From: Cyanobacteria bacterium P01_D01_bin.156
GTDB lineage: Bacteria; Cyanobacteriota; Cyanobacteriia; Phormidesmidales; Phormidesmidaceae
Length of the DNA stretch: 13,853 bases
Assembly (NCBI GenBank): GCA_039024555.1
Contig: JBCCQQ010000100.1
Location: 1-13,853, forward strand
Reading direction: 5' to 3'
The stretch's first letter is position 1. Every line of letters begins with the position of its first letter. Position numbers and translations under genes: made by a program. This document shows, one piece after another, positions 1 to 13,228 of this stretch. Below the pieces are notes generated by a model. It had not been told where the DNA came from. It did not search any database and saw only the letters and a list, made by a program, of their open reading frames with translations.

Positions 1-104
1 AGTGCCTGCATATGGGGGGTGGCAAACACATCTTCTAGGACTGCTTTCCAACTGGGTTCTAGCTTAATGGTGCTAGTGGAAGAAGGGTTGGCTTCTGCTG
101 TCAT
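1..104 (-). CDS. ung: Uracil-DNA glycosylase family 1, N-terminal part (runs off the left edge)
   Basis: Not in the ORF track. Manual translation from ATG at 104 gives MTAEANPSSTSTIKLEPSWKAVLEDVFATPHMQAL, matching the typical Ung N-terminus (KLEPSWK.L..EF..PYM..L). The catalytic GQDPY motif would lie outside the window. An in-frame GTG at 185 is an alternative start. Confidence 0.7.
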   Translation of the reverse strand, partial: MTAEANPSSTSTIKLEPSWKAVLEDVFATPHMQA

Positions 105-230: not shown

Positions 231-322
231 CGTAGGCAACTACCGCCCATAATTCGAAAACCCGTAACAGCTTTAGCTCATAATCTCGACACTTTATCTG
301 CACTCAGTTCACTAGTTGGCAC
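231..322. other. Putative recombination (att-like) site at the 3' end of the VOC gene
   Basis: Bounded by GGCAACTA (235-242) and TAGTTGGC (313-320), i.e. AAC...GTT cores. The VOC stop codon directly follows the AAC (GCCAAC-TAG on minus). Internal imperfect direct repeat CATAATTCGA / CATAATCTCGA. No good attC hairpin. Confidence 0.3.
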
Positions 323-683
323 CATCTGAACCGGTAAATATAATCTTATTGCCAAAGGGATCAGTGAGCGCCATATCCCTGGTGCCCCAAGGCATCTTTT
401 GAATACCCGGCCTAGCATTTGGATACTTTTTCCCTTGCAGCTGCTTATGATAGTCTTCAAGATTATCGATTTCTATGCGCAGCGCCGCACCTGGGCAACA
501 GTCTCCATGGTGTTCCGAGATATGCAAAACACAATCGTCTTTTGAAACTTGCATGTAAAGGGGAAAGTCAGTTTCAAATCGATGTTCCCAATCTAGGTTG
601 AAACCCAAGAAATCCAGGTAGAACTCTTTAGTCTTAGTTTCATCAAAGCTTCTCAATATTGGAATCGTTTTTCCTAAACCCAT
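312..683 (-). CDS. VOC/glyoxalase/bleomycin-resistance superfamily protein
   Basis: 123 aa; TIPILR.FDE.K..EFY..FLGF..DWEHRF, LHISEHHGDC.PG and PWGTRDM.LTDPFGNKIIF are typical of this family. Confidence 0.88.
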   Translation of the reverse strand: MGLGKTIPILRSFDETKTKEFYLDFLGFNLDWEHRFETDFPLYMQVSKDDCVLHISEHHGDCCPGAALRIEIDNLEDYHKQLQGKKYPNARPGIQKMPWGTRDMALTDPFGNKIIFTGSDGAN

Positions 684-1155: not shown

Positions 1156-2073
1156 TCAGTTTGCTCCTAACGATTTGTTATATGGCGTTATAAAATCAGG
1201 ATAGATAAGTGGCATTATTTTGTCTAATGTTATCCCCATCATCCGCGTACCATTGCCTGAATGCCACAACTGATCGATCTCATATACTTTGTGTGTTTGT
1301 ACCGCTTTAATTTGCTGCCAGATTCTATTAACACTAAGTTGTTTAGACAAAGAGGCTTTCGACGGTGAATAAGTCTGTACAAATATGACATCTGGATCGA
1401 CTTCTAAGATCTGCTGAAGAGAAATATTAGTTAATCCCGGTTCATTATTATGTTTCTCAGGCTCAACCCAGGGATAATGAGAAAATTTTCTCATTATGCT
1501 ACCAAAAGTTCCGATATTCGTCTCAATCATAAATTTACGGCTGAGATAATTGAGACTAGAACCACCCATAAACAAAACAGTTTTGTATTCTTGAGTAGGT
1601 ATGGCACTACAATAATTTTCTAGTCGATTTTCAAACTGGATGACCGCAGCTTCTGCTTGAGAAACACGATTGGTCAATTGGGCAACATCTCGTAGCCGTT
1701 GTAATGCAGCTTTATAGCCAGTACCACCCATTAGGTAAAGTGGAGCCGCATTGCCTAACCATCTACGATAAAATCGATGTGGAAATGACCAGCCTAGTAT
1801 TAAATCTGGGTTTAATTTACGGACAGCTTTCCAGTTTGGAGCAATCCAAGATCCAACAGGTTTAAACTGCTTTGCACGCTCTCCATAGAATTCTGGATTA
1901 TTTGCAACTCCTTTGGTCAGATAACCCACAGGTTCTAGATCAAGTTCCAGCAAGATGTCCAAACCTGCAGCAGTTAAGCACACAATACGACGTGCTGATT
2001 GAGCAAGTTTAATTTGTGTTCCGGTAAAGTCTACTACTCGCAATTGCTCCATCAGAATTAACCTTTTTGCCAA
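1156..2073 (-). CDS. Fe-siderophore/cobalamin-type (FepB/FhuD/BtuF, helical-backbone) substrate-binding protein lacking a signal peptide
   Basis: VVDFTG...L....RRIVCL, VGS...PNWKAVRKLNPDLIL, ISLQQILEVDPDVIFV and WQQIKAVQTHKVYEID are class III SBP motifs. Start is TTG 2073 or, more likely, ATG 2052. Confidence 0.85.
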   Translation of the reverse strand: MAKRLILMEQLRVVDFTGTQIKLAQSARRIVCLTAAGLDILLELDLEPVGYLTKGVANNPEFYGERAKQFKPVGSWIAPNWKAVRKLNPDLILGWSFPHRFYRRWLGNAAPLYLMGGTGYKAALQRLRDVAQLTNRVSQAEAAVIQFENRLENYCSAIPTQEYKTVLFMGGSSLNYLSRKFMIETNIGTFGSIMRKFSHYPWVEPEKHNNEPGLTNISLQQILEVDPDVIFVQTYSPSKASLSKQLSVNRIWQQIKAVQTHKVYEIDQLWHSGNGTRMMGITLDKIMPLIYPDFITPYNKSLGAN

Positions 2074-2099
2074 TTTTAGCGATGGTATTCAAAAGATGC

Positions 2100-2960
2100 T
2101 TAATTCTTTCTATATTTCTTCCTACTAATAGCACTGTTAAATACCTGGCCCAAATACCTCGCGCCAAACCATTCTCTCATCGGCAACACATTCGCCACCC
2201 ACAAATTATTATAAGTCTCTCCACCCAACAAACCTGTCGCCGGAAACTCTCCTCGTTGTGGATGCCAATAGGTGCCAAAAATAATATCCCACACGGGAAA
2301 AAACGCTGAGAAGTTCTTATCTAAATGTTCATCCTGAAACGAGTGATGAATGCGATGATACTGCGGCCCAGTTACCACCCGAGAAAACCAGCCCAAGTTC
2401 AACCGCAGATTCATATGAATAAACTGTAGCCACAACACCTGAGCAAATGCCAACAGCCCCAACGCCAGACCACTAAAATCAAACAAAATCCCCATGGGGA
2501 TCGCTAAAAAGAAGAGCAACAGCGGCTCTTCTAGCCAATGTACCCGACGAGTACTGGTTACATTCAACGACTGCTCACTGTGGTGAAACTTATGCTGCTC
2601 CCACAAAAACCCAGTCTTGTGCTGCCACCGATGAAACCAATAGTAGAAAAAGTCTGTTGCTAAAAGATAGAAGAGTGCTGCCAATCCATAGGTTATTGCA
2701 GTCTGCGGCACGGGTAGCTGAATCCATGGCCCACCGACCCAGTCTTGAACCAACGTCACAATTACACTAATGCCCGTCGCCTGGATCGCCAAACTTACCA
2801 CGCTATAAACTACATACCACCGCAGGTTAAACCACAGGTGCGACCAGGGCTGACGCCTCTCTACCGGACGGATGCGCTCCACTAAAATGAAGACACCGTA
2901 CATTAGAAAACCAGTCAACACATATTTCACAAAGCCCAGGGGGGCGGCAAGCCATTCCAT
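2100..2960 (-). CDS. Sterol desaturase / fatty acid hydroxylase family membrane di-iron enzyme
   Basis: His boxes DFFYYWFHRWQH, HKFHHS, FIHMN and HRIHHS; KNFS.FFP.WD.IFGT tail; several TM segments. Confidence 0.92.
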   Translation of the reverse strand: MEWLAAPLGFVKYVLTGFLMYGVFILVERIRPVERRQPWSHLWFNLRWYVVYSVVSLAIQATGISVIVTLVQDWVGGPWIQLPVPQTAITYGLAALFYLLATDFFYYWFHRWQHKTGFLWEQHKFHHSEQSLNVTSTRRVHWLEEPLLLFFLAIPMGILFDFSGLALGLLAFAQVLWLQFIHMNLRLNLGWFSRVVTGPQYHRIHHSFQDEHLDKNFSAFFPVWDIIFGTYWHPQRGEFPATGLLGGETYNNLWVANVLPMREWFGARYLGQVFNSAISRKKYRKN

Positions 2961-2975
2961 AGGAAAGTGGAGAAA

Positions 2976-4154
2976 CTAAGTTGGAGAAATTGAGTTAGGA
3001 AGTGGAGAGCAGCGAAGATTTATCAGTAGCCCTATCGCTATGATAGTCGTGATAACACTGAAATAAAAGGGCGAAGCTACCGACACCTGAGTATAAAGCC
3101 AGCCTGCAATTAAACTGGCGGGCAGCGTGGCTAGCCCCATTAGCATATAAAAGGTGCCCACCTCTGCTCCGCGCCGTTCTGGATGAACTAGATCAGCCAC
3201 AAAGGCTTTTTGTACCCCCCGCGTCAGGGTGGAATAGAGACCGTAAAACATGAACAGTCCCCAAACTAGTTCGGCACTATGGGCCAAGGCAAAGCCTAGA
3301 TAGACTAAAGCAAACACCCCATAGCCCGTGACTAATAAAGGCCGTCGCCCAATGCGATCTGATAGTCGACCCATTGCGAAGCCCAAGCAGGTCTCCACCA
3401 GATTGAATATTGCGTAGAGCAACAGTAGCTGGCTGCCGGTGAAGCCTAGATCCTGAGATCGCAACAGTAAAAATGCATCGGACGAATTCCCCAGGCTAAA
3501 TAGCCCCACCACCAGCAAAAACTGGCAATAGGCCGGACTCAGCCCCCGCAGCGTAAACTGTGGACGAGAACGCCGCTTTACAGCCAGCCGAGGTTCTTTC
3601 ACAAATTTTAGTAGGACCCATACGCCGAATAGGGCCGGAAGAAATGAGATCGCAAACACCCCCCGATAACCCAGCTGCCGTAATAACAAAAACCCCAGCA
3701 GCGGCCCCAGCACCTCCCCCACCGTTTCCAAACTATGGTGCAGCCCAAACGCCTGCCCCCGCTGCTCCAGCGCACAGTTTTCCGTAATCAACACATCCCG
3801 TGGGGCCGCTCTGAGTCCTTTACCCAATCGGTCCAGCAGCCGCGACCCCAGCACCGCAACCCAACTGGCCGATAACGCCAGCCCCAGCTTGGACAATGCC
3901 CCTAAACCGTAACCTGCGATCGCAAACGGTTTCCGCTGCCCCACCCGATCCGACAGCCAGCCCGAATACAGCTTTAACAGACCGGCGACACTCTCAGCAA
4001 TGCCTTCAATTACCCCCACCGTCCACACCGGAGCCCCCAGAGCTGAGGTCAGAAAAATGGGCGTAATCGGATACACCATTTTGCTGGCAAAATCACTACA
4101 GAGACTCACCCAACCAAGGGCACGAACCGTCGGCGTCAGCGTTGACTTAGACAT
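2976..4154 (-). CDS. Major facilitator superfamily transporter
   Basis: 392 aa, about 12 hydrophobic segments, motif A twice (GWLSDRVGQRK, GRLSDRIGRR). Its start overlaps the PPIase stop by 8 bp. Confidence 0.93.
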   Translation of the reverse strand: MSKSTLTPTVRALGWVSLCSDFASKMVYPITPIFLTSALGAPVWTVGVIEGIAESVAGLLKLYSGWLSDRVGQRKPFAIAGYGLGALSKLGLALSASWVAVLGSRLLDRLGKGLRAAPRDVLITENCALEQRGQAFGLHHSLETVGEVLGPLLGFLLLRQLGYRGVFAISFLPALFGVWVLLKFVKEPRLAVKRRSRPQFTLRGLSPAYCQFLLVVGLFSLGNSSDAFLLLRSQDLGFTGSQLLLLYAIFNLVETCLGFAMGRLSDRIGRRPLLVTGYGVFALVYLGFALAHSAELVWGLFMFYGLYSTLTRGVQKAFVADLVHPERRGAEVGTFYMLMGLATLPASLIAGWLYTQVSVASPFYFSVITTIIAIGLLINLRCSPLPNSISPT

Positions 4155-4947
4155 GCCCGGACTCCAATACGGGCAGACTTTGAGACGTTTCTTCCAGGGG
4201 TGTCTTCTGAGGTATCTTTTCAGGTATCTGCGGCAACAGCTTTACCGGACTCGCCTGCATTTTCTGGTTTAGCAGCGCTTGAAACTGTTCACTGAGCAAA
4301 CGCTGTCGCATGGCCTCATCAAACTTAGCTGGGATCATCTTTTCTAAGCGCACAATCACCAGCCAGTCCCCCACTTGATCGGGTGGCCACAGCTGCTGCG
4401 GCTCGCTGACCTGCAAGATTCGAACCAACGTGGGGTGAAGACTTCCCAGCTCAACAGGCCCTACCATCCCCCCAGTTTGGGCCTCTTTCCCTTGAGAATA
4501 TTCCTTAGCCACGTCCGCAAAGGATAGCTTGTCATCCCGCAAGCGAAAATAAAGTTCCTGAGCCAGGCCCGCATTCTTAATACGAATCATTGAATAGATG
4601 GCCCGATCGTACTTAGCCTTGTTCTGCATAAAATCAGACTGAATTTGGGTAGCCCAAGTATCTTCCTTAAATCTATGTAGCCGATAGGTACGAATCGCCT
4701 CAGCCATTAGGTGTTGGGGTTCCAACTGATGTTGCTGACACCAGGCCTGACGCTGTTCATCATTGAGCAAGTTGTGCTGAGTACAATAAAAATCATAGGC
4801 AACTTGCTGATCGCAGGGAATCCCATCAATCAGCTGATCAACCACCAGCTCTCGCACCAGCTGCGGTAGCAAACGATACTGTCTAATCTTCTTCACCAAA
4901 TCTGGAGTGTTAAGAATTTGGGGACCAACTTGCATAGCGGGTTCCAT
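4147..4947 (-). CDS. Parvulin/PpiC-type peptidylprolyl isomerase-like protein (cyanobacterial type usually next to type I secretion genes)
   Basis: Y.LLPQL.REL..DQ, YSMIR.....AQELYFR, SFADVAKEYSQG.EAQTGG.VGPV, W..IVRLEK..PA.FD..MRQRLL. ATG 4947 (or 4935) is preferred over TTG 4968. Confidence 0.88.
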   Translation of the reverse strand: MEPAMQVGPQILNTPDLVKKIRQYRLLPQLVRELVVDQLIDGIPCDQQVAYDFYCTQHNLLNDEQRQAWCQQHQLEPQHLMAEAIRTYRLHRFKEDTWATQIQSDFMQNKAKYDRAIYSMIRIKNAGLAQELYFRLRDDKLSFADVAKEYSQGKEAQTGGMVGPVELGSLHPTLVRILQVSEPQQLWPPDQVGDWLVIVRLEKMIPAKFDEAMRQRLLSEQFQALLNQKMQASPVKLLPQIPEKIPQKTPLEETSQSLPVLESGHV

Positions 4948-4972
4948 AGGCAAGATATACACTCTCAACTAC

Positions 4973-4994
4973 TATTAAAACTGAGTCTCAATAA
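4973..4994. promoter_or_regulatory. Putative Fur box upstream of the leftward operon
   Basis: ATTAAAACTGAGTCTCAAT (4974-4992) matches 14/18 positions of the Fur-type palindrome ATTGAGAATnATTCTCAAT (consensus recalled from memory), 27-45 bp upstream of ATG 4947. Confidence 0.5.
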
Positions 4995-5072
4995 GCTCAT
5001 TCAGTAGATAGCGTACCACTTCAAAAACCATGTCCGTCTTAGAACTATCTAAAAAAATGATTGGGCTAAGAT

Positions 5073-5165
5073 CGAATGGCACTGACGTAAGGCAAATTCC
5101 GGCGAAATTAGTACGAGATAGTAAGGCTTTCAGTCTCCACTTTATGCTTATGTCAGTGCCATTCG
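5073..5165. mobile_element. 93-bp MITE with 19-bp terminal inverted repeats and an 8-bp target-site duplication
   Basis: TIRs CGAATGGCACTGACGTAAG / CTTATGTCAGTGCCATTCG (18/19). Flanking direct repeat GCTAAGAT at 5065-5072 and 5166-5173. Termini resemble IS4-family ends (inference). Confidence 0.88.
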
Positions 5166-5318
5166 GCTAAGATCTGTCTTCTATAGCCGTCCTCCGAAAC
5201 GAACCTCTCTAATCTGAGGAAAGATTTATCATTTTTTTACTATTCCATTTTTTCAAGATATACCGTCCCATCAAAGAGGTTCGAAAGGGAGCAGTCTTAC
5301 CCAGGACGCCATCTAGCA

Positions 5319-5348
5319 TTGCACTTATTGAGAAGAAGTGGCAATAAT
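5319..5348 (+). promoter_or_regulatory. Putative Fur box overlapping a sigma70-like promoter for the rightward genes
   Basis: TTATTG-N11-CAATAA dyad (5325-5347); core ATTGAGAAGAAGTGGCAAT is 14/18 to the Fur-type consensus. It overlaps TTGCAC (5319-5324)-N18-AATAAT (5343-5348). Confidence 0.5.
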
Positions 5349-5383
5349 AAGACGACTCATCAATAGAGAGACCAAAAACAGGG

Positions 5384-5689
5384 ATGAACGAGATTCTCAC
5401 GACCTGTTCACTCGTAGCAGCTGTACTCCTGGGCCCTTTTTTACTATTGTGTTTGATGGCTTGGTTCATGGTGCAGGCTTTTGTGGATATCAAATCCAAA
5501 GTAATGCGTTTATATCAACAACGGGCCACACCCTGTGGGCATTGTGCTTACTATACGGGCTGTAAAGAATTGGCGTGTGCCGTACAGCCCTGTTTGGCCT
5601 TGACCTCAGCCGCTAAAGATTGCCGGGACTTTACCCCAACGGAAACACCTCATCCCATGGCCACGGATTCTTACAAGTATGATTACTAG
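5384..5689 (+). CDS. Small membrane-anchored Cys-rich hypothetical protein (cyanobacterial PCxxC...CAVxP...CxDF type)
   Basis: N-terminal TM helix followed by PCGHCAYYTGCKELACAVQPCLALTSAAKDCRDF; purine-rich GAGAG/AGGG upstream of the ATG. Confidence 0.75.
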   Translation: MNEILTTCSLVAAVLLGPFLLLCLMAWFMVQAFVDIKSKVMRLYQQRATPCGHCAYYTGCKELACAVQPCLALTSAAKDCRDFTPTETPHPMATDSYKYDY

Positions 5690-5754
5690 GGTGCTTACCA
5701 GGATTAACGTTAGGATACTAATCCTCACTCCCCACATCCTTAAATTCCTGCCCT

Positions 5755-6483
5755 ATGACTAGCTGGCTAGTCTGTCCAAAGCCGCGATCAAATCCAAAAC
5801 TTAGGCTGTTGTGTTTTGCCTATGCGGGCGGCTCTGCCTGGATATTTCGTACCTGGGCTGAACAACTGCCTGCAACCGTTGAACTCTGTGCCATTGAGCT
5901 ACCGGGGCGGGGCAAACGCATGGCCGAGCCCGCTCTGACTACAGTTGCTGCCATTATCGAAACGCTAGGTCCCGAACTGCGGCCTTATCTTAATTTACCC
6001 TTTGCCTGTTTCGGCCATAGCTTGGGGGCACTGATCGCATTTGAACTATGCCGCTGGCTCCGGCGCACTGTCCAGCTTACTCCCGATCATCTCTGGGTTT
6101 CAGCTGCCCAAGCCCCCCAGCTACCCATCGAGAAAGCTCCCATGCACACCCTTCCCGATGCCGCATTTATCAATGAGCTCAAACATTATCAAGGCACCCC
6201 CGATAGCATTTTGAATCATGCAGAAATGATGTCTTTAGTACTCCCCATCCTTCGTGCCGACTTTACAGTTTTAGAAACCTATCGATACCAACCCGGTGCT
6301 GCCATCGGCTGTCCCATCACCGGCTTTTGGGGCCAGCAAGACTCCATTGTCAGCCAAGAACATGTAGCTGCCTGGAACATCCACACCCAGGACTTCTCCC
6401 TAGAGGTTATCGATGGCGACCATTTTTTCGTACAACAGCCTACATTTTCTCAAAGGCTAGTATCAACGCTGACTAGCGTCTAA
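5755..6483 (+). CDS. Type II thioesterase (GrsT/SrfAD-like)
   Basis: LRLLCFAYAGGSA, IELPGRG.R, nucleophile motif GHSLG, LPILRADF, catalytic His motif GDHFF. Confidence 0.95.
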   Translation: MTSWLVCPKPRSNPKLRLLCFAYAGGSAWIFRTWAEQLPATVELCAIELPGRGKRMAEPALTTVAAIIETLGPELRPYLNLPFACFGHSLGALIAFELCRWLRRTVQLTPDHLWVSAAQAPQLPIEKAPMHTLPDAAFINELKHYQGTPDSILNHAEMMSLVLPILRADFTVLETYRYQPGAAIGCPITGFWGQQDSIVSQEHVAAWNIHTQDFSLEVIDGDHFFVQQPTFSQRLVSTLTSV

Positions 6484-7487
6484 CCTGCCTGTTCAGACAT
6501 ATAATCTATCGCTAAAGCTTCCACAGCAAGACCAGACGCTGCGATCGCACGCTGACATCGAAGTAAATCTCCGTCACCTGCATATATCTGCCGTCCCAGC
6601 CGATGAGCCAAATACAACATCTCAGGATGGGGCAACCAAGGCAAAATCACCTGATCTTGGGGGCTCGATAGCAGGCACAATAGCTGCTCTAGTTTTTCTA
6701 AGGAAAACTCATCCTGGGGCAACACCACCACATTATCCACCTGCTCCACCAGCCAGTCATGATCCCAATCATCTCCAGTAAATGAGATCGCAAGCTTAGC
6801 CGTCGGTGCGCCATCAATAAATGAGCATCCTGCCGTATCACCACAGAAAACAAGATGGTTTCCCCCCAGTCGATACCATCCTGGGGCAATGGTTAATGTC
6901 ATATTCTGCGAAGCCACAGCTGATGACTGTAGTGTGGTCTGTCTCGCCTTGCCAGGAATTATCCGAATAATTTCTGACTCAGTTATGGGCACCTCATCTA
7001 CTGTGGGAATCTCATCCGCAGTCTGCGCTTCCACAGCAGCAGACTTGAGCTGCTTAACTTTCTTAATAGCCGTCCTGAGCTCATTCGCCGTAATTTTTTT
7101 ACCCTGTTCTGCGGATTCTAAAACTTCATTCCGGAGGTCTTCTGGCACCGATGGTGATGCTAATTGGTACAGCAAAGACGTGGCGATATCGACTTTTGCA
7201 AGATTTGCAAATCTATCTCCAAAGGTTTCATACACCTTTATGAAGTTATAGGCCGTCCGCTGACTCCAGCCAAATTCTACCTTCAGCCAAGTTAGGAATT
7301 GACCATATTGCAATCGCGATCGCACATCCGATAGCTTTTCACCAATTTCCCAAACATCTTGAGCTGAACGACGTAGCCGTTCACGGATCTCCCCAGTACG
7401 CTGCTGAATAATCGAGCGTTTCGAAGCTTCTAGACTGTCATAATCAAATAACCCACTGATTGATGAAGCTTTAGAACCACGAACCAT
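6480..7487 (-). CDS. DUF3102 domain protein with a C-terminal degenerate DNA methyltransferase-like domain
   Basis: N-terminus FDY..L...QRT.EI...EIG.KL..V...L.YGQF..WL..EFGWSQRTAYNFIKVYETF is DUF3102-like. C-terminus GWYRLGGNHLVFCGDT ... SSPQDQVILPW ... LGRQIYAGDGDLLRC follows a beta-class MTase layout. Its stop overlaps the thioesterase stop. Confidence 0.8.
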   Translation of the reverse strand: MVRGSKASSISGLFDYDSLEASKRSIIQQRTGEIRERLRRSAQDVWEIGEKLSDVRSRLQYGQFLTWLKVEFGWSQRTAYNFIKVYETFGDRFANLAKVDIATSLLYQLASPSVPEDLRNEVLESAEQGKKITANELRTAIKKVKQLKSAAVEAQTADEIPTVDEVPITESEIIRIIPGKARQTTLQSSAVASQNMTLTIAPGWYRLGGNHLVFCGDTAGCSFIDGAPTAKLAISFTGDDWDHDWLVEQVDNVVVLPQDEFSLEKLEQLLCLLSSPQDQVILPWLPHPEMLYLAHRLGRQIYAGDGDLLRCQRAIAASGLAVEALAIDYMSEQAG

Positions 7488-7606
7488 AACTAAACCTATA
7501 GAACGTTAGTAATAAAAAGTTAATCACGCACACACAACAGAAACCTATTCGCCCATCAACTCTAGCTTAAATATTTATCTCAAGTCCACCTTTATGTAAT
7601 CCACTT

Positions 7607-7728
7607 AGCTTGACTTTACAGGACCAACATGAAAATTAATTTTCCTATAGTGGGTTGATAGGCAGACATAGTCAAGCTTGATAGGATTGATTCTGATCAA
7701 TTCCTACGATGGGCGATGGCCCATCGTA
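7607..7728. promoter_or_regulatory. Cluster of dyads in the divergent promoter between DUF3102 and the ABC pair
   Basis: AGCTTGACT (7607-7615) / AGTCAAGCT (7670-7678); perfect 14-bp palindrome GAAAATTAATTTTC (7631-7644); perfect 10-bp stem TACGATGGGC-GATG-GCCCATCGTA (7705-7728). Confidence 0.45.
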
Positions 7729-7765
7729 ACCATTTCCAAGGGTTCCAAAATTTGAGGTCTTATGA

Positions 7766-9448
7766 ATGCCGCAACTGTTTGAGCGCGTCCGTCAATCGCT
7801 CTGGCAAATAATTCAGTTTTACTGGAAGAATGCTTCTCCTAAGGAAAAAAGAACTACTAGCATTGGTATTCTTCTACTCACGGGAGTATCCATAATTAGT
7901 AGCAGCTTTTTGGTTGTTGAGAGCCTCCAACGGGGTGAATTTATTTCAGCCTTAGCCGCCCGCAGCCCACAGCGATTTCAAATTGCCCTAACTCTCTTTA
8001 TAGGTATCTTATTAGCATGCTCCCTACTGCTATCCATGGGTACCTACATTCGCGATCGCTTAGGGCTACATTGGCGGCGCTGGCTGACCCACTATGTGCT
8101 GTCATCGTATTTAAGCCAGCAACGATTCTATCGATTATCCACCGATATCGATAACCCTGACCAGCGCATGGCAGAAGATATCAAACAGGCCACCCAAACC
8201 TCTCTATTTATCTTAACCACACTTCTAGAGTCGGTGATTCAGCTGATTGGCTTTGTTGGGGTGCTGTGGTCAGTCTCCATGGGACTGACGGGCTTTTTGG
8301 TATTCTATGCTCTGGTGGGCAGTGCGATCGCAACATTCTTTTTTGGTGCTCGTCTTACCCGCATCAATAGAGAACAGCTTAAACGAGAAGCCAACTTTCG
8401 CTTTGGTCTCATTGACATTAGGGAGCACGGTGAATCCATCGCCTTTTACCAAGGACAGACCTATGCAAACAAGGACAGTCGCCAACGCTTTCGTCAAGTA
8501 GTCAATAACTTTAATCGCTTTATTCGCTGGCAGCTCGGCTTAGATTGTTTTCAAAACAGCTATCAATATCTTACATTTATTATCCCTAGCCTGATTTTGG
8601 CCCCACAGATCCTTTCAGGAGCCTTAGAAATTGGCTCTGTCGCACAATCCCAAGCCGCATTTGATCGCATTTGGCTATCCCTCAGTTTGGTCGTGGTCCA
8701 GTTTGAGAAACTCACTGCTCTAGCCGCCAGCATTGATCGCCTCAGTCATTTGCTTCAGGGATTGCAGGACACTGACACCTTGGAGCCCTCCATTAAGGTT
8801 CTCCCAAGTGCCCACGTAGCCACCCAAAATCTCACCTTAGAACTTCCAGCAGCACAGCGCAGCTTAGTCAAACAGCTCTCTTTTAGTGTCGAAGCAGGAC
8901 AGAATCTGCTTATTACAGGCCCCAGCGGCGTCGGCAAAAGTTCTCTTATCAAAGCCATCGCCGGTCTTTGGAGTAGCGGTCAAGGGACGCTCCAATGTCC
9001 CCCAGAAGATGTTTTATTTTTACCCCAACGGCCCTATCTGATCTCAGGTAACCTCCGGCAACAGTTGCTCTATCCGCAGCTAGGTACTCCCCCGCCGGAC
9101 CAACGACTCCTTAAGCTCCTCAAAACCGTACAGCTGGATGACCTCAAGGATCTAGACCAACAAGCAGACTGGTCTCAGCATCTATCGACAGGGGAACAAC
9201 AGCGATTAGCTTTTGCTCGACTCTTACTCGTCCAGCCCACCTACGCCCTCATCGACGAAGCCACCAGCGCCCTGCCCACATCCCAAGAACAATATCTGTA
9301 CCAACAGCTGGCAAAAAACAATACCACCTACATTAGCATCGGTCATCGCCCCAGCCTCTTGACCTACCATCAGCAAGTTTTAACCCTAAAAACAGACCAA
9401 AGCTGGGATCTACAATCGGCTAAAACCTATCAAGGGTTTGCCTTTTAA
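7766..9448 (+). CDS. ABCD/YddA/McyH-type fused permease-ATPase ABC half-transporter (paralog 1)
   Basis: DNPDQR loop, EAA-like EANFRFGL..IREHGESIAFYQG, Walker A GPSGVGKS, signature LSTGEQQRLAFARLL, Walker B YALIDE, H-loop SIGHR. Confidence 0.95.
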   Translation: MPQLFERVRQSLWQIIQFYWKNASPKEKRTTSIGILLLTGVSIISSSFLVVESLQRGEFISALAARSPQRFQIALTLFIGILLACSLLLSMGTYIRDRLGLHWRRWLTHYVLSSYLSQQRFYRLSTDIDNPDQRMAEDIKQATQTSLFILTTLLESVIQLIGFVGVLWSVSMGLTGFLVFYALVGSAIATFFFGARLTRINREQLKREANFRFGLIDIREHGESIAFYQGQTYANKDSRQRFRQVVNNFNRFIRWQLGLDCFQNSYQYLTFIIPSLILAPQILSGALEIGSVAQSQAAFDRIWLSLSLVVVQFEKLTALAASIDRLSHLLQGLQDTDTLEPSIKVLPSAHVATQNLTLELPAAQRSLVKQLSFSVEAGQNLLITGPSGVGKSSLIKAIAGLWSSGQGTLQCPPEDVLFLPQRPYLISGNLRQQLLYPQLGTPPPDQRLLKLLKTVQLDDLKDLDQQADWSQHLSTGEQQRLAFARLLLVQPTYALIDEATSALPTSQEQYLYQQLAKNNTTYISIGHRPSLLTYHQQVLTLKTDQSWDLQSAKTYQGFAF

Positions 9449-9498
9449 CAGTTCACATTTTCTCCTCATTCTCCACATTTACCATATATATCCCCTCT

Positions 9499-11193
9499 AT
9501 GCTTCAACCATCTTCGCTAAAATCAGTCATCCTTCCCTACTGGTTCTCCCGAGAGAAATGGGGAGCATGGAGTCTTTTCCTCCTTCTAATGGGTCTGCTT
9601 TTAATCCAAACTGGCCTTAAAGTTGTCTTTCTAATCTATGGCGGTGAAGTTACCTCCGCCCTAGCAGCTCAAGATACCGAACGATTCAGGCAAGCAATCG
9701 GTATTTTTTTACTGATTTTATTGATCGGTATTCCCTTTGCTTCCCTCAGTGGCTATGTTCGAGCTAAATTAGGCCTGTTCTGGCGTACCTGGCTCACCCA
9801 TTACTATCTAGCTCAATACCTAAGTAATAATAACTTTTATCTACTAAGACTTTATCAAACCCTGGACAACCCAGGGCAGCGCATCGAGGAAGATATTCGC
9901 ACCCTCACCCAAGAATCCCTTAAGTTCCTAGTTATCTTTCTAGAGTCAGGATTTCAGCTTCTGGGGTTTGCTGGCGTTCTCTGGTCTATTTCTCAGCCGC
10001 TCGTAGCTGTTTTATTAGTTTATGCTGTGGTAGGAACTGCGATCGCAACCCTCTATTTTGGAAAACCCCTCATCAGTATCAATGCCGAACAGCTCCAACA
10101 AGAAGCCACTTTCCGGTTCGATTTAGCCAGAATTCGTGAAAACACCGAAGCCATTGCCCTATACCGTGGAGAAGCACAGGAACTCTCTCAAACCTGGCAG
10201 CAGTTTACCTTAGTGCTTCAAAATTTCTCTCGCTTAATCCAATGGCAGCTAGGTCTTAACCTTTTTCAGAACCACTATCGCTACGCCACATTTATCATTC
10301 CTGGTATTATCCTAGCCCCTAAACTCTTTGTCGGAGACCTCGAAATTGGCGATGTCACACAGGCAGGAGCCGCATTTAACCTCATGCTAGGTGCTCTCGC
10401 CTTGATTGTTCTTCAGCTACAACAGCTTACCAATTTGGGCGCAGGCATCCAGCGTCTGAACCAATTCACCACTTCTCTTTTACAGCCTAGCAGCATTATT
10501 TTAGATCCTCTCAACCCCCAGAAATTTTCAACCGTTGAGCGACACACGGGAGCTAATCTCTCAATCAATAATCTGACACTCACCACCCCTATCGCAGACA
10601 AGATTCTCATTCAAGATCTATCCCTTACCCTCCCACCTCAACAAAGTTTACTCATTGTCGGCCCCAGCGGCATTGGCAAAAGTTCACTACTCCGGGCCAT
10701 CGCCGGACTCTGGCAAATAGGTAATGGCACCATCACCTGTCCAGCCTCGATTGCCTTCCTTCCACAGCAACCCTATTTACCACCTGGCACTCTACGGCAA
10801 CAGCTTTTATACCCCGATTCAGACTCTACCATTAATAATTCAAATCTCACTCAGATTTTAACTGCCGTCAATTTAGAACACCTATTAGCCACAGCAGATC
10901 AAACCAATACTCAAGAAAATCTCTTATCCAACACTCTTCCCAATCTATCATTAGGCGAACAACAACGATTAGCCTTTGCTCGCCTACTATTAAAAGCTCC
11001 TACATACCTTATTCTAGACGAAGCCACTAGCGCCCTAGATCTAGCCAATGAAGCTTTACTATATGAGCATGTAAAAGAGCTTGATATCGCTATCATCAGC
11101 GTTGGACATCGTCCCTCTCTAAAACAATATCACGACTATCAACTTGAACTTTCCCAACAGGGGCGATGGAAATACTCATCGATTCAGCTGTAG
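9499..11193 (+). CDS. ABCD/YddA/McyH-type fused permease-ATPase ABC half-transporter (paralog 2)
   Basis: PYWFS.EKW.AW N-terminus, DNPGQR, EATFRFDLARIRENTEAIALYRG, GPSGIGKS, LSLGEQQRLAFARLL, YLILDEATSALD, SVGHR. Confidence 0.95.
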   Translation: MLQPSSLKSVILPYWFSREKWGAWSLFLLLMGLLLIQTGLKVVFLIYGGEVTSALAAQDTERFRQAIGIFLLILLIGIPFASLSGYVRAKLGLFWRTWLTHYYLAQYLSNNNFYLLRLYQTLDNPGQRIEEDIRTLTQESLKFLVIFLESGFQLLGFAGVLWSISQPLVAVLLVYAVVGTAIATLYFGKPLISINAEQLQQEATFRFDLARIRENTEAIALYRGEAQELSQTWQQFTLVLQNFSRLIQWQLGLNLFQNHYRYATFIIPGIILAPKLFVGDLEIGDVTQAGAAFNLMLGALALIVLQLQQLTNLGAGIQRLNQFTTSLLQPSSIILDPLNPQKFSTVERHTGANLSINNLTLTTPIADKILIQDLSLTLPPQQSLLIVGPSGIGKSSLLRAIAGLWQIGNGTITCPASIAFLPQQPYLPPGTLRQQLLYPDSDSTINNSNLTQILTAVNLEHLLATADQTNTQENLLSNTLPNLSLGEQQRLAFARLLLKAPTYLILDEATSALDLANEALLYEHVKELDIAIISVGHRPSLKQYHDYQLELSQQGRWKYSSIQL

Positions 11194-11204
11194 GCTCAGG
11201 ACTG

Positions 11205-11319
11205 ATATCAAGTCAGATTGAATAACCACAATATACGACCAACTAAAATAAGCTGTAAGCCGTGTGAATTCAGAACTGTGCAGAAATTCATATTGTGGGC
11301 TTTCTCGATGACTTGATAT
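11205..11319. mobile_element. 115-bp MITE-like element with bipartite terminal inverted repeats
   Basis: ATATCAAGTCA-N10-CCACAATAT (11205-11234) is mirrored by ATATTGTGG-N10-TGACTTGATAT (11290-11319). TA at both ends could be a TA target duplication. Confidence 0.65.
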
Positions 11320-11384: not shown

Positions 11385-11445
11385 AGACGTCAATTAGATA
11401 GGGCTCTTCCGAGCTTTTGATACTGGTGGCGAAATATTCCTTAAC
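11385..11445 (+). repeat. Left arm of the 61-bp inverted repeat enclosing IS1182
   Basis: AGACGTCAATTAGATAGGGCTCTTCCGAGCTTTTGATACTGGTGGCGAAATATTCCTTAAC is 59/61 identical to the reverse complement of 13168-13228. Confidence 0.95.
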
Positions 11446-13194
11446 TAAATGGTCGGTTCCATGAGCTTGGTGAATTGAGAGGTCCGAGTAGCTTCATGAG
11501 GGAGTCCCTGGAGCCAACGATGAATACGCTTGCAGTTGATGGCTGTTGCTGTCATCAGATGTTGAAAATGGGTTTTGGCCAAGCCAATATAACGAGCCCG
11601 TCGTAGTCCATGCGCCCGAACACCTTCAGAAAGAGTACCCTCAATCCCAGAGCGTAGGGCATAGTCAGCCTGATAGTCGGCAGTTGGCTCTCGCTGTCTA
11701 GCGTTTTGTAAGGCTTTGTACTGCGCCTCTGGTCATAGTGTAATTGAACGACGCTGGCGTTCGCTACGAGTACATAACTTGAGGCTCGGACAAACAGAAC
11801 AATCGGCTGTGGAAAATTTGATTTTGATGACCTCATTGTCTCGACCATCGATAGCAGGTGTCCAGGAAACACTAGACTTTCCCTCTGGACAAATAGCCTT
11901 CTGATGTTGCCAATCTACCGCAAAATCATCCGCTGCATAGCCATTATCGGCCTTTGCCTGCCAGTGAAGATTGATCCGAGTTGGTCCTAATAAATCGACG
12001 TGATAGTTCTGTTCAGTGTTCACTAACAGTTCAGCGTCGAGATACCCAGTATCAACAATATGCTTGTTAGGCAGTAAATTATTGTTGTTTAGCGACTGGT
12101 GAATCGCTTCAGTCATATCTCCATCAGCTACAGGAGCTGGAGAGGTTTCTACATTCGTAATCAGATGCAAGTCTCCAGGTTCACACGTCTCACTAAGATG
12201 GACTTTATAGCCGACCCAGGACGTTGTATTTTTCTTAGCATAGTGTGCTATCCGGCTCATAAGGAGAGCTGATCATGATAGAGGCTGGAGGGGCCTCTGC
12301 TTGGGTGCGCCAGCGAATCTTGGTATTCTCACAATAATATTGTTGTATCCATACTTGCCGTAATGTTTCTACGGCTGGAATTTTCCGTAGCCAGGCTGGA
12401 CTACTGGCATCAAAAACAGCATTCAGCAACGTTATTCCATCTCGACCATACACTTCAGCTTGAATAATTCGTTGTTGCTTTGACTTGGGTAAGTGATAAT
12501 CTTCGATGCGCTCATTGTAGCGATCTATCCACTCAGCTTTACTATGAGCAACCGTCCAATTGGGAGCCGCAACCGCGAGTGCATTTAACGCGGCCCGCAA
12601 GGTCTCACCGGCACATTCTAGTCGAGTCACAGCAGAATGGCCGCTAACACATGAGTCGCATCTGTACGTTGGCGACAACGAGCTTTTAACCAGCCCTTAT
12701 CCTGGCAAAACTGTAGAAGTCTCTCAAAGATGAGACGTTCTGCATTTGCATCAACTAATCGGCGGCGGAACTCGCTGAGTACCGTATGATTAAACCCTGT
12801 ATCCGTTAGCTCCAGACATAATAAATATTTCCAGTCGATGCGACTACGGACGGCATCCGCTGTTTGACGGTCGCTTAAGCCTTCCACAAACTGTAGGATA
12901 GTCACCAAGGTTAGTCGCCAAGGCGATTCTGCCGGTTGACCCTTTGCCTCGAAAAGGTGGCTAAACGTCTCGTCATCGATAAACTTGCTCAGCCTCACGG
13001 ACATCGTCATACAGAGATTTCCGTGAGGAAAAACAGCATGAGCAACTTTGGCGGTCTCTAGAGGAACGGTATATTGGGCTTGTGGTTGTAACGACACGTG
13101 ACGCTCCCTGGTAGATTCAATAGCTGACCCTGTATGAGGATTATCTGACTGTGTAAGGCTTCCATGTGTTAAGGAATATTTCGCCACCAGTATC
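11419..13194 (-). mobile_element. IS1182-family insertion sequence (inactive), about 1776 bp
   Basis: Transposase remnants enclosed by a perfect 27-bp IR starting GATACTGGTGGCGAAATATTCC at 11419 and 13194. The exact end placement is inferred from resemblance to related IS1182 ends. Confidence 0.85.
11445..13097 (-). pseudogene. IS1182-family transposase pseudogene (two frameshifts and one nonsense codon)
   Basis: GTG start 13097; LQFVEGLSDRQ.ADAVR.RIDWKY.L.LEL.D.GF.HTVLSEFR.RL, QRTDATHV, WVGYKVHLSETC, VDTGY and RSGIEGTLS motifs. 1-bp deletion near 12635, 1-bp insertion near 12249, in-frame TGA at 11735-11733; the frame continues to TAG at 11447-11445. Confidence 0.92.
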
Positions 13195-13228
13195 AAAAGC
13201 TCGGAAGAGCCCAATCTAATTGTCGTCT
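13168..13228 (-). repeat. Right arm of the 61-bp inverted repeat enclosing IS1182
   Basis: Reverse complement of 11385-11445 with two mismatches, both in the outer 16 bp. Confidence 0.95.

Follow-up and report, generated by a model that had tools for sequence, protein, structure and literature searches.

Gene content of the window

The window, a stretch of 13,853 nucleotides, begins within the 5' part of a gene (3..104, minus strand) that is truncated by the contig end and that we take to encode a uracil-DNA glycosylase-like protein (ung); it matches the orthologue at locus L017 by tblastn (91% over 34 aa), and it has DNA matches as well. Next on the same strand are genes for a glyoxalase-superfamily protein (312..683; Glyoxalase_7, 3e-44), a class III iron-siderophore-type binding protein (1156..2073; Peripla_BP_2, 3e-20; likely start ATG 2052), a His-box di-iron membrane hydroxylase/desaturase whose clade is associated with CmlA-type Dmaq clusters (2100..2960; FA_hydroxylase, 2e-29), an MFS transporter with 85% amino acid identity to the copy on contig C8 (2976..4154; MFS_1, 5e-46), and a signal-less parvulin-like protein (4147..4968; Rotamase, 6e-6). 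Diverging from these on the plus strand are genes for a small Cys-rich membrane protein with four invariant cysteines (5384..5689) and a type II thioesterase (TEII) with the motifs GHSLG and GDHFF (5755..6483; Thioesterase, 1.5e-44). Further right, a minus-strand gene encodes a fusion of DUF3102 to an N4/N6 DNA-methyltransferase fold that is catalytically degenerate (6480..7487; DUF3102, 1e-12, and fold alignment), and two ABCD/YddA-type half transporters follow on the plus strand (7766..9448 and 9499..11193), each with ABC_membrane_2 and ABC_tran domains. All nine genes listed by the initial annotation, from the binding protein to the second half transporter, are intact open reading frames, and eight of them have Pfam matches; the Cys-rich protein matches no Pfam family. 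The right end is occupied by an IS1182-family element with 61-bp inverted ends and a transposase in three frames (11385..13228, minus strand) and by an IS630-family transposase truncated by the contig end (13227..13853, minus strand). This IS block is an insertion unrelated to the pathway.

The binding protein had been described as signal-less and as part of the module. The first point was borne out: the class III binding-protein sequence was confirmed for 1156..2073, and it has neither a signal peptide nor a lipobox. The lipobox is absent in 12 of 12 members of its clade, compared with its presence in three of three outgroup proteins, and by its sequence the protein belongs to a signal-less cyanobacterial clade. 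In the clade member at L085, an uncertain upstream extension contains a hydrophobic patch. The gene lies 26 bp behind the hydroxylase gene on the same strand, a junction spanned by contigs in three of four sequencing runs. The binding protein and glyoxalase genes are absent from the orthologous modules of G015, G012, G004 and C8 and are thus regarded as a local insert, so that the binding protein was rejected as a core part; its G012 orthologue (84% identical) lies on another contig. The protein is a later insert and would likely act as a cytoplasmic holder of siderophore-bound iron.

Linkage to a FAAL-PKS-NRPS cluster

The initial annotation read the module as the accessory arm belonging to an iron-responsive lipopeptide/siderophore pathway, with synthetases beyond the IS block or elsewhere. 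No synthetase gene is found on the window contig, which ends within ung, and linkage is seen in orthologues only. A position beyond the IS block was rejected, since orthologous loci show unrelated genes after the second ABCD gene and carry the cluster on the ung side; the synthetases would lie past the left end, beyond ung. In G015 and G012, ung sits between the hydroxylase gene and the cluster tail. Orthologues of the module (81–93% amino acid identity) and the whole cluster are found on one contig in G015, a second module copy (73–76% identical) is located 9 kb from the aminotransferase gene on contig C8 of the window's own bin (G000), and the G227 module adjoins CmlA-R, MT, AmT and FbnM. 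In G012 the module is present, yet 20 kb of the cluster gave no match (genome 89% complete). No assembled contig, including those from reads at L053, bridged the window to a cluster.

The parent cluster is a FAAL-PKS-NRPS system of about 70 kb with Dmaq-chelator genes (fabrubactin/anachelin family). In G015 and on C8, the module adjoins genes for FAAL-ACAD-ACP, four PKS and seven NRPS proteins, an Atu3671-type monooxygenase (above the MupA/Atu3671 cut-off for the C8 protein), a CmlA beta-hydroxylase–reductase fusion, a methyltransferase, an aminotransferase, an FbnL/M-like pair, a TonB-dependent receptor, TonB and ExbBD. The C8 receptor is a TonB-dependent siderophore receptor (TIGR01783, 366 bits; cut-off 223.5). 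The terminal reductase, aminotransferase and methyltransferase were found in both clusters. The FbnL/FbnM split heme tyrosine hydroxylase pair is present on C8 and G015 and not on the window; C8:102681 matches the C-terminal half of heme peroxygenase 6vdp (E 1e-9) and is 50–58% identical to the Agrobacterium "siderophore biosynthesis protein," and the FbnL half had no solved-structure match. C8 proteins match the annotated Agrobacterium siderophore cluster at 32–62%. Other partners and product classes were also considered. The C34 NRPS cluster was set aside after 36 kb gave no receptor or Dmaq-gene match, and leptochelin was rejected because the accessible part of its description reports an isochorismate start and TE release (PMC11240249). 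For anachelin proper, no salicylate synthase-like ORF was present among the C8 cluster proteins scanned, where the start is FAAL-ACAD-ACP.

Co-occurrence in other genomes, a check called for by the initial annotation, was counted in a single draw of 400 genomes from the class and was found. An FbnM-like gene is present in 24 of the 400 genomes, the DUF3102 fusion in 20 (13 shared with the FbnM marker), and the hydroxylase in 9 (8 shared). The other seven DUF3102-fusion genomes lack the marker, and some copies lie by other PKS, iron-uptake or polysaccharide genes. ABCD-type transporters are found in 139 of the 400, so their presence alone says little. The block could instead be a generic iron-starvation island that merely travels beside the cluster, given that clusters are not the only places where the IsiE-like gene, the binding protein and the ABCD pair are found. 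This seems improbable, as TEII, the hydroxylase and the DUF3102 fusion follow the Dmaq marker through several families, and cluster genes were absent from the surroundings of more distant hydroxylase relatives in all 71 metagenome loci (many short). With the same genes adjoining a FAAL/PKS/NRPS cluster and its siderophore receptor in orthologous loci, the block very probably forms the accessory flank of a PKS-NRPS cluster that starts with FAAL and carries Dmaq-chelator genes, and it likely serves an iron-repressed lipopeptide siderophore pathway. The flank predicts genes that tailor and move the product of this cyanobacterial cluster family.

Origin of the contig

The window (contig C100) is 97.7% identical to G014 over 6058 bp, compared with a background identity to G014 of 71–75% for a 12-kb stretch of G000:C1 and 75–76% for the C8 cluster; the contig therefore probably derives from a congener closely related to G014 that was mis-binned into G000. 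Several small G000 contigs duplicate larger ones at 73–82%, and the one tested, C103, is 100% identical to G014:C126 over 11,963 bp while duplicating C48 at 74–79%. The G014 copy of the module is at its native locus, followed by the same neighbour gene as at the C8 locus, and the IS elements of the window have no close copy elsewhere in G000. These observations count against the less likely reading in which G000 acquired a genuine second copy by recent transfer, as an orphan accessory module that would serve the C8 cluster or foreign siderophores. Transfer would fit the IS elements at the contig end, the difference from G014 of about 2.3% plus inserts, and a tetranucleotide usage ordinary for G000; neither tetranucleotide nor HIP1 tests separated C100 from G000. 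Two nif contigs, C59 and the duplicate C71, are 70–84% identical to G014, and a G014-lineage source for the C71 nif duplicate was rejected on its 71–79% identity, which is a point against the mis-binning reading. If mis-binning is the correct reading, the apparent "orphan module" is a binning artefact.

Iron regulation and the DUF3102 fusion

As the initial annotation had noted, Fur-like boxes lie on both arms of the divergon. The box in front of the leftward operon (4974..4992) scores 12.7 bits, reached by 1.4% of the genome's upstream regions, and the box in front of the rightward operon (5327..5345) scores 14.9 bits, reached by 0.7% (block-shuffle p=0.004 for the region's best site). Both are kept in six of six aligned orthologous spacers and flank the parvulin/Cys-protein divergon. 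Direct matching to the published FurA consensus gave at best 13 of 19 positions in the window's spacers. The DUF3102/ABCD divergon (7488..7765) contains no convincing Fur box (7.0 bits, shuffle p=0.16). Among 34 DUF3102-gene upstream regions, some from close kin, 14 have a Fur-type site at shuffle p<0.05, the window's not among them; a separate autoregulatory motif upstream of DUF3102 genes was rejected after a de novo search returned only the Fur-like motif. At low iron, Fur would release both arms of the parvulin/Cys-protein divergon.

The "pseudoMTase" label of the DUF3102 fusion proved apt. Over residues 210–321 it aligns with beta-class N4/N6 DNA methyltransferases (Z 11.4, rmsd 2.1, 109 aligned), and the best eight alignments are all to beta-class methyltransferase folds (Z 9.4–11.4, rmsd 2.1–2.8, 108–120 aligned). 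A Foldseek search with the fusion gave no match at E<=0.001. The catalytic DPPY and the SAM-binding FxGxG are kept in 0 of 35 homologues of the fusion; in their place are the invariant D240-W-x-H-x-W245 and P283-W-L. The protein is likely a non-catalytic DNA-binding or ligand-sensing factor. With its presence in 13 of the 15 genomes of the CmlA-type clade, it is a usable marker for that clade; it is also a candidate regulator.

The other accessory proteins can be assigned putative roles. TEII would edit stalled carrier domains, and the MFS transporter would move the product or its breakdown pieces. A paralogue of the parvulin-like protein, C38:29629, precedes ORFs of 993 and 515 aa, which we take from their size and N-terminal sequence to be a type I secretion pair (HlyB/HlyD); giant RTX-repeat proteins are encoded at the other end of the cluster, and the window's parvulin would fold such proteins. 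A paralogue of the Cys-rich protein, C84:7492, comes after flavodoxin in an isiA-like operon, and homologues are found near an IsiC-like gene in L092 and L107, so by context the Cys-rich protein may be an IsiE-like metal binder. Both ABC halves keep Walker A/B, the LS(T/L)GEQQR signature and the H-loop, and their best solved matches are plant ABCD1, 6tqe (presumably Rv1819c) and ABCD4. The pair would likely move ferri-siderophore across the inner membrane, with import somewhat favoured over export.

A hydroxylase in place of a tyrosinase?

Among the 24 FbnM-marker genomes, eight have the hydroxylase only, nine a cluster-type tyrosinase only, none both and seven neither (Fisher p=0.009, in a post hoc test on kin that are not independent). 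Within the CmlA-type clade, eight of 15 genomes have the hydroxylase, six the tyrosinase, none both and one neither (post hoc p=0.0014), and the two enzymes were found together in 0 of 249 loci. The two states are scattered on the core-gene tree, with five changes among 18 labelled tips, and close relatives differ in their enzyme (G188/G198, G378/G322, and G000-C8 versus G015 and G004). Because the two enzymes do not overlap, the hydroxylase may stand in for a copper tyrosinase, and the pattern suggests non-homologous replacement. We infer that the hydroxylase performs an oxidative tailoring step on the product.

What that step might be can be read in two main ways, some other reaction being a third possibility. 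The hydroxylase may desaturate or hydroxylate the methyl-branched acyl/polyketide tail, its mutual exclusion with the tyrosinase being due to chance or lineage sorting. This reading, to which we give slightly less than an even chance, draws on membership of family PF04116, a weak OlsE match, and the position of the gene near FAAL-ACAD in five loci (head to head in G207 and G394, one ORF away in L174, L176 and L235). It leaves unexplained the 0/17 overlap with repeated swaps, and the G015 and C8 clusters, alike in starter and PKS genes, differ here: the hydroxylase is present in one, the tyrosinase in the other. The profile search found no solved-structure relative of the hydroxylase. Alternatively, the hydroxylase could be a non-homologous stand-in for the membrane-anchored copper tyrosinase that matures the catechol (Dmaq) end of CmlA-type siderophores. 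The lack of overlap in both the marker genomes and the loci, the scattered states and the differing close kin all favour it, but we consider it rather unlikely: the exclusion test has the limits given above, neither enzyme is seen in five anachelin-type clusters or in the Agrobacterium cluster, so that Dmaq as such requires neither, the G198 tyrosinase is on another contig away from the G198 cluster, and those FAAL-ACAD neighbours would fit an acyl substrate. Moreover, the tyrosinases carry an N-terminal hydrophobic anchor (9/9) and likely face the periplasm, whereas His-box active sites face the cytoplasm. A stand-in of this kind would mean that a His-box enzyme matures a catechol and that a siderophore can be made by a route independent of copper. 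More doubtful still is a broader proposal for cyanobacterial beta-hydroxylating Dmaq pathways: that their chelator is completed by a copper tyrosinase in some cases and by an unrelated membrane di-iron "fatty acid hydroxylase" in others, with repeated exchange of the two in evolution, and that a dead DUF3102-fused DNA methyltransferase serves them as dedicated regulator. If true, the His-box family would gain a reaction new to it, and pathway regulators a new type.

Comparison with known systems

The initial annotation did not recognise the combination as a described system. The pathway class, Dmaq siderophores, is described, and the accessory set was not found in the literature searched, though Vinnik 2021, Jeanjean 2008 or the supplements of PMC4247773 may already cover parts; the search also returned nothing tying a sterol desaturase to cyanobacterial siderophores and tyrosinase. 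In the accessible parts of the reports, all2641-all2649 of Nostoc/Anabaena PCC 7120 is an NRPS/PKS siderophore cluster bound by FurA and described as orthologous to that of Agrobacterium C58 (PMC4005646, PMC6562677, PMC4247773), and the product of this cyanobacterial family was reported as structurally unknown in 2019 (PMC6562677). As far as the accessible description goes, the Agrobacterium fabrum C58 fabrubactin cluster and its look-alike NZ_CP124965.1 share with the cyanobacterial cluster an AMP-ligase start, PKS, an Atu3671/FbnE-type monooxygenase, NRPS, a methyltransferase, an aminotransferase, the FbnL/M pair, a thioesterase and a TonB receptor, at 32–62% to the C8 proteins (PMC12971057). 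Beyond these, an ACAD domain, two C-methylating PKS modules and the CmlA beta-hydroxylase are found in the cyanobacterial cluster. In the incomplete Agrobacterium gene table, the thioesterase is the sole gene of the window set; the hydroxylase or tyrosinase, ABCD pair, DUF3102 fusion, parvulin and Cys-rich protein do not appear there, and FecCDE-type permeases and a ferric reductase are listed instead.

[quoted passage not shown] It differs in its salicylate starter in place of FAAL-ACAD and in its size (20 genes in 34 kb), and that part does not name the window's accessory set. IsiE of Synechocystis PCC 6803 is, according to the accessible text, a small Cys-rich protein of the Fur-controlled isiA-isiB operon, the kind of operon in which the window protein's paralogue lies; IsiE has 59 aa with CXCC/CXXC and the window protein 101 aa with a membrane helix, the likeness being one of context and cysteine pattern only (PMC8634477). 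The ABCD halves have the fused TMD-NBD arrangement in common with Rv1819c/YddA/ABCD4-type transporters, as these are presented in the accessible text (PMC3603451). The window pair differs from them in being encoded in tandem by halves that are 46% identical, and it is thus likely a heterodimer.

Gene content and Fur-type boxes

The window spans an entire contig of the assembly (G000:C100), and the nine genes named in the initial annotation are all intact ORFs of the families it had given (ORF and family searches). Its Fur-like boxes on both arms of a divergon were also recovered. A Fur-type weight matrix trained on 10 promoter regions of iron-uptake and iron-stress genes elsewhere in G000, none of them from the module, yields a ATTGAGAAT-N-ATTCTCAAT-like palindrome. 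The best two matrix sites in the window, 4974-4992 (12.7 bits) and 5327-5345 (14.9 bits), are predicted Fur-type sites, one ahead of each arm of the parvulin/Cys-protein divergon, and both are conserved blocks in 6/6 aligned spacers. The DUF3102/ABCD spacer also contains conserved blocks by alignment; the matrix scan and significance test gave no significant Fur-type site in it. Inserts of ~100 bp at window positions 5064-5164 and 11203-11318 vary among strains in metagenome runs.

A probable siderophore cluster adjoins the module in relatives

Condensation domains in G000 are confined to contigs C8 and C34. By homology to the window genes, seven of the nine module genes have a second copy on C8 (C8:111022-120260; MFS, parvulin, Cys protein, type II thioesterase [TEII], DUF3102 fusion and two ABCD; 73-85% at the amino acid level); a 9-kb interval separates them from the end of a FAAL–PKS–NRPS cluster recognized by domain content (C8:29135-103244). 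The cluster starts with FAAL-ACAD-ACP, two C-methylating reducing PKS, a PKS and a luciferase-like monooxygenase, and continues with seven NRPS genes plus one further PKS. The A-domain pockets, hand-read with codes that we presume to apply, suggest Asn, Gly, Val, Gly, Ala, a heterocyclised residue without assignment, Gly, Ala, Ser and an aromatic residue. The tail encodes a fusion of a CmlA beta-hydroxylase with a thioester reductase, together with a methyltransferase, an aminotransferase and two small ORFs, one of which matches the C-terminal half of heme peroxygenase 6vdp. The FbnL/M pair is described as a marker of biosynthesis of Dmaq, a chelator group of siderophores, and alpha-hydroxycarboxylate chelators are attributed to FbnE (PMC12971057). 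At the opposite end lie a TonB-dependent siderophore receptor, TonB, ExbBD-like genes, an EntS-like MFS and three giant RTX-repeat proteins. The latter (C8:1294-20785; 1393, 1645 and 3310 aa, one of them containing a beta-lactamase domain) are encoded behind the receptor with a Fur-type site upstream, and RTX genes are again found next to Dmaq clusters in other families. The second NRPS cluster of G000 (C34:26253-44351) includes ORFs that we take to be sulfotransferase-like and glycosyltransferase-like.

Long matches to the module were found in 4 of the 18 congeners searched. One of these, G015, has module and full cluster on a single contig, in the order cluster tail, a few small genes, ung, hydroxylase, MFS, parvulin, Cys protein, TEII, DUF3102, ABCD1, ABCD2. 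Because the left end of the window falls within ung, its synthetases should lie leftward. The proposal that they are off the contig thus stands, given the adjoining cluster in G015 and on C8, but they are expected past the left end and not past the IS block. Three genomes of another genus have MFS-parvulin-Suc_Fer / tyrosinase-TEII / DUF3102 / ABCD pair, once directly adjoining Dmaq genes. NRPS/PKS/FAAL genes are linked to homologous loci (on one contig in G015, and on C8), and linkage to a FAAL-PKS-NRPS-Dmaq cluster supports the earlier view of the module as the accessory arm of an NRPS/PKS lipopeptide siderophore pathway. In the 89% complete congener G012, the module is present (L053, G012:C306), yet 20 kb of the cluster is unmatched; either the cluster is unassembled or this is a non-producer retaining the flank.

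Co-occurrence was counted in a single draw of 400 genomes from the class, which is assumed to be the same set for every marker. The FbnM-like gene (the Dmaq marker) occurs in 24 of the 400, the full-length DUF3102 fusion in 20 (13 also with the FbnM marker), the hydroxylase in 9 (8 with the marker) and ABCD-type transporters in 139. The anticipated co-occurrence of module genes in other genomes is thus observed. Fisher values for such counts overstate the association, because kin are not independent. All 13 genomes with both DUF3102 fusion and FbnM marker fall within the CmlA-type clade of Dmaq clusters, and the fusion is in none of the 8 anachelin-type clusters. Other copies adjoin unrelated PKS, iron-uptake and polysaccharide genes. 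A ~245-aa Glyoxalase_3-like gene (L025:8600-9337; also beside DUF3102 in L105-L116 and L118) is divergent from the fusion in 12/20 loci, replacing or preceding the ABCD pair.

In the model of the DUF3102 fusion (mean pLDDT 80.9), a disordered linker joins a helical N-terminal domain to a C-terminal domain whose top 8 structural matches are all beta-class N4/N6 DNA methyltransferases. DPPY and FxGxG are lost in 35/35 homologues, with invariant residues in their place, which bears out the label of pseudo-methyltransferase. Both motifs are kept in 1 of 150 wider relatives (P0024), so an intact DUF3102-methyltransferase fusion exists. A weak alignment of residues 43-132 to Spo0J (Z 6.6) is no more than a lead. 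The fusion may have a non-catalytic regulatory role.

Hydroxylase and tyrosinase

The His boxes of the hydroxylase are invariant (12/12 aligned). C8 has a tyrosinase and no hydroxylase, and no tyrosinase match was found in the congeners G015, G004 and G014. With tyrosinases counted at ≥50% identity, which leaves out a 120-residue 47% match elsewhere in G207, the 24 FbnM-marker genomes comprise 8 with hydroxylase only, 9 with tyrosinase only, none with both and 7 with neither. It is possible, if doubtful, that the hydroxylase replaces the cluster tyrosinase in catechol (Dmaq) maturation. The zero overlap favors such a replacement, but neither enzyme is found in five anachelin-type clusters or in the Agrobacterium cluster, the tyrosinases carry an export anchor, and FAAL-ACAD often adjoins the hydroxylase.

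In a tree built from FbnM, FbnL, the aminotransferase and the methyltransferase (27 tips, without G258, whose gene is full-length and SfmD-like), 8 clusters are anachelin-type and the others form a CmlA-type clade, in most of which CmlA was observed (hidden by contig breaks in G207, G294, G430 and G378). The draw contributes 15 genomes to this clade: the hydroxylase occurs in 8, the tyrosinase in 6 and neither in one, the fragmented G294. The 18 labelled tips show 5 state changes; the hydroxylase state of G014 was inferred from the window, and the G198 tyrosinase is off-cluster. As 723 of 2000 label shuffles gave 5 or fewer, the states are scattered and do not form two lineages. The G198 tyrosinase (L159:202-1479, G198:C230) is 84% identical to that of C8, with core cluster genes at ~60%, and by these identities appears to be a recently moved gene. 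Close orthologues (57% or more) account for 9/80 metagenome hydroxylase loci: six near NRPS/PKS/FAAL, one near a TonB receptor and RTX genes, and two short, with tyrosinase in none of the nine. The 71 distant loci had no cluster genes. Four anachelin-type loci without tyrosinase (L142, L144, L145, L146) have a block after FbnM of a ~165-aa ORF, a stand-alone ~513-aa adenylation-like ORF, and ~440-aa and ~135-aa ORFs.

Binding protein, parvulin, Cys protein and transporters

The binding protein and a glyoxalase occupy a 1.8-kb gap between ung and hydroxylase, whose content is missing in G015 and G012; the G012 orthologue of the binding protein is on a different contig. Matches occur in 16/300 genomes. 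That the protein is signal-less was confirmed: no lipobox is present in any of the 12 aligned members of its clade, whereas 3/3 more distant proteins have one. Its neighbors presumably include class I aldolase, isiA-like genes, ABC half transporters, AraC regulators and TonB receptors. The most fitting reading is that of a cytoplasmic binder of iron-siderophores belonging to iron-stress islands, probably inserted here behind a putatively Fur-controlled operon. Two signal-less binding proteins (L065 and L069) share a C-terminal extension of ~60 residues.

A parvulin paralogue is followed by what we take to be a type I secretion pair, which fits a parvulin role for the RTX proteins at the far end of the cluster. 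McyH is an exporter precedent for ABCD transporters, and yddA is under Fur control. Import by the ABCD pair is somewhat favored by gene content, because no FecCDE-type permease was seen among the subset of C8 ORFs scanned and an EntS-like MFS is already there. A Cys-protein paralogue on contig C84 comes after flavodoxin in an isiA-like operon, the same setting in which IsiE is described (PMC8634477).

Provenance of the contig

Over 6058 bp the window shares 97.7% identity with G014; a stretch of G000:C1 is 71-75% and the C8 cluster 75-76% identical to G014. A homologue of C8:131401, the gene past the C8 module, also follows the G014 module, so these two copies are native to one locus. Several small G000 contigs (C103, C113, C121, C122, C129, C131) duplicate larger ones at 73-82%. 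Of two small duplicates tested, C103 is 100% identical to G014:C126 and C71 is not G014-like. Foreign DNA in G000 probably exceeds the 1.78% contamination given for the assembly. The window contig was probably mis-binned into G000; its arrival by recent transfer is rather unlikely. The sequence itself is real, being present in marine metagenome runs of two studies, with contigs bridging the binding-protein/hydroxylase junction in 3/4 runs. C71 and C59 carry two complete-looking nif clusters, 75-86% identical to each other; C71, 81-91% identical to G016, is either a second foreign contig or a genuine second nitrogenase set.

Comparison with known systems

The search found no literature description of the flank or the exclusion, within a coverage that did not extend to Vinnik 2021 and Jeanjean 2008. 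The ABCD halves resemble Rv1819c, YddA and ABCD4 (PMC3603451). The C8 proteins are 32-62% identical to those of the annotated Agrobacterium cluster. The pathway class, Dmaq siderophores, is already known; the novelty lies in which genes form the flank, and chiefly in the mutual exclusion of hydroxylase and tyrosinase and in the pseudo-methyltransferase as a marker.
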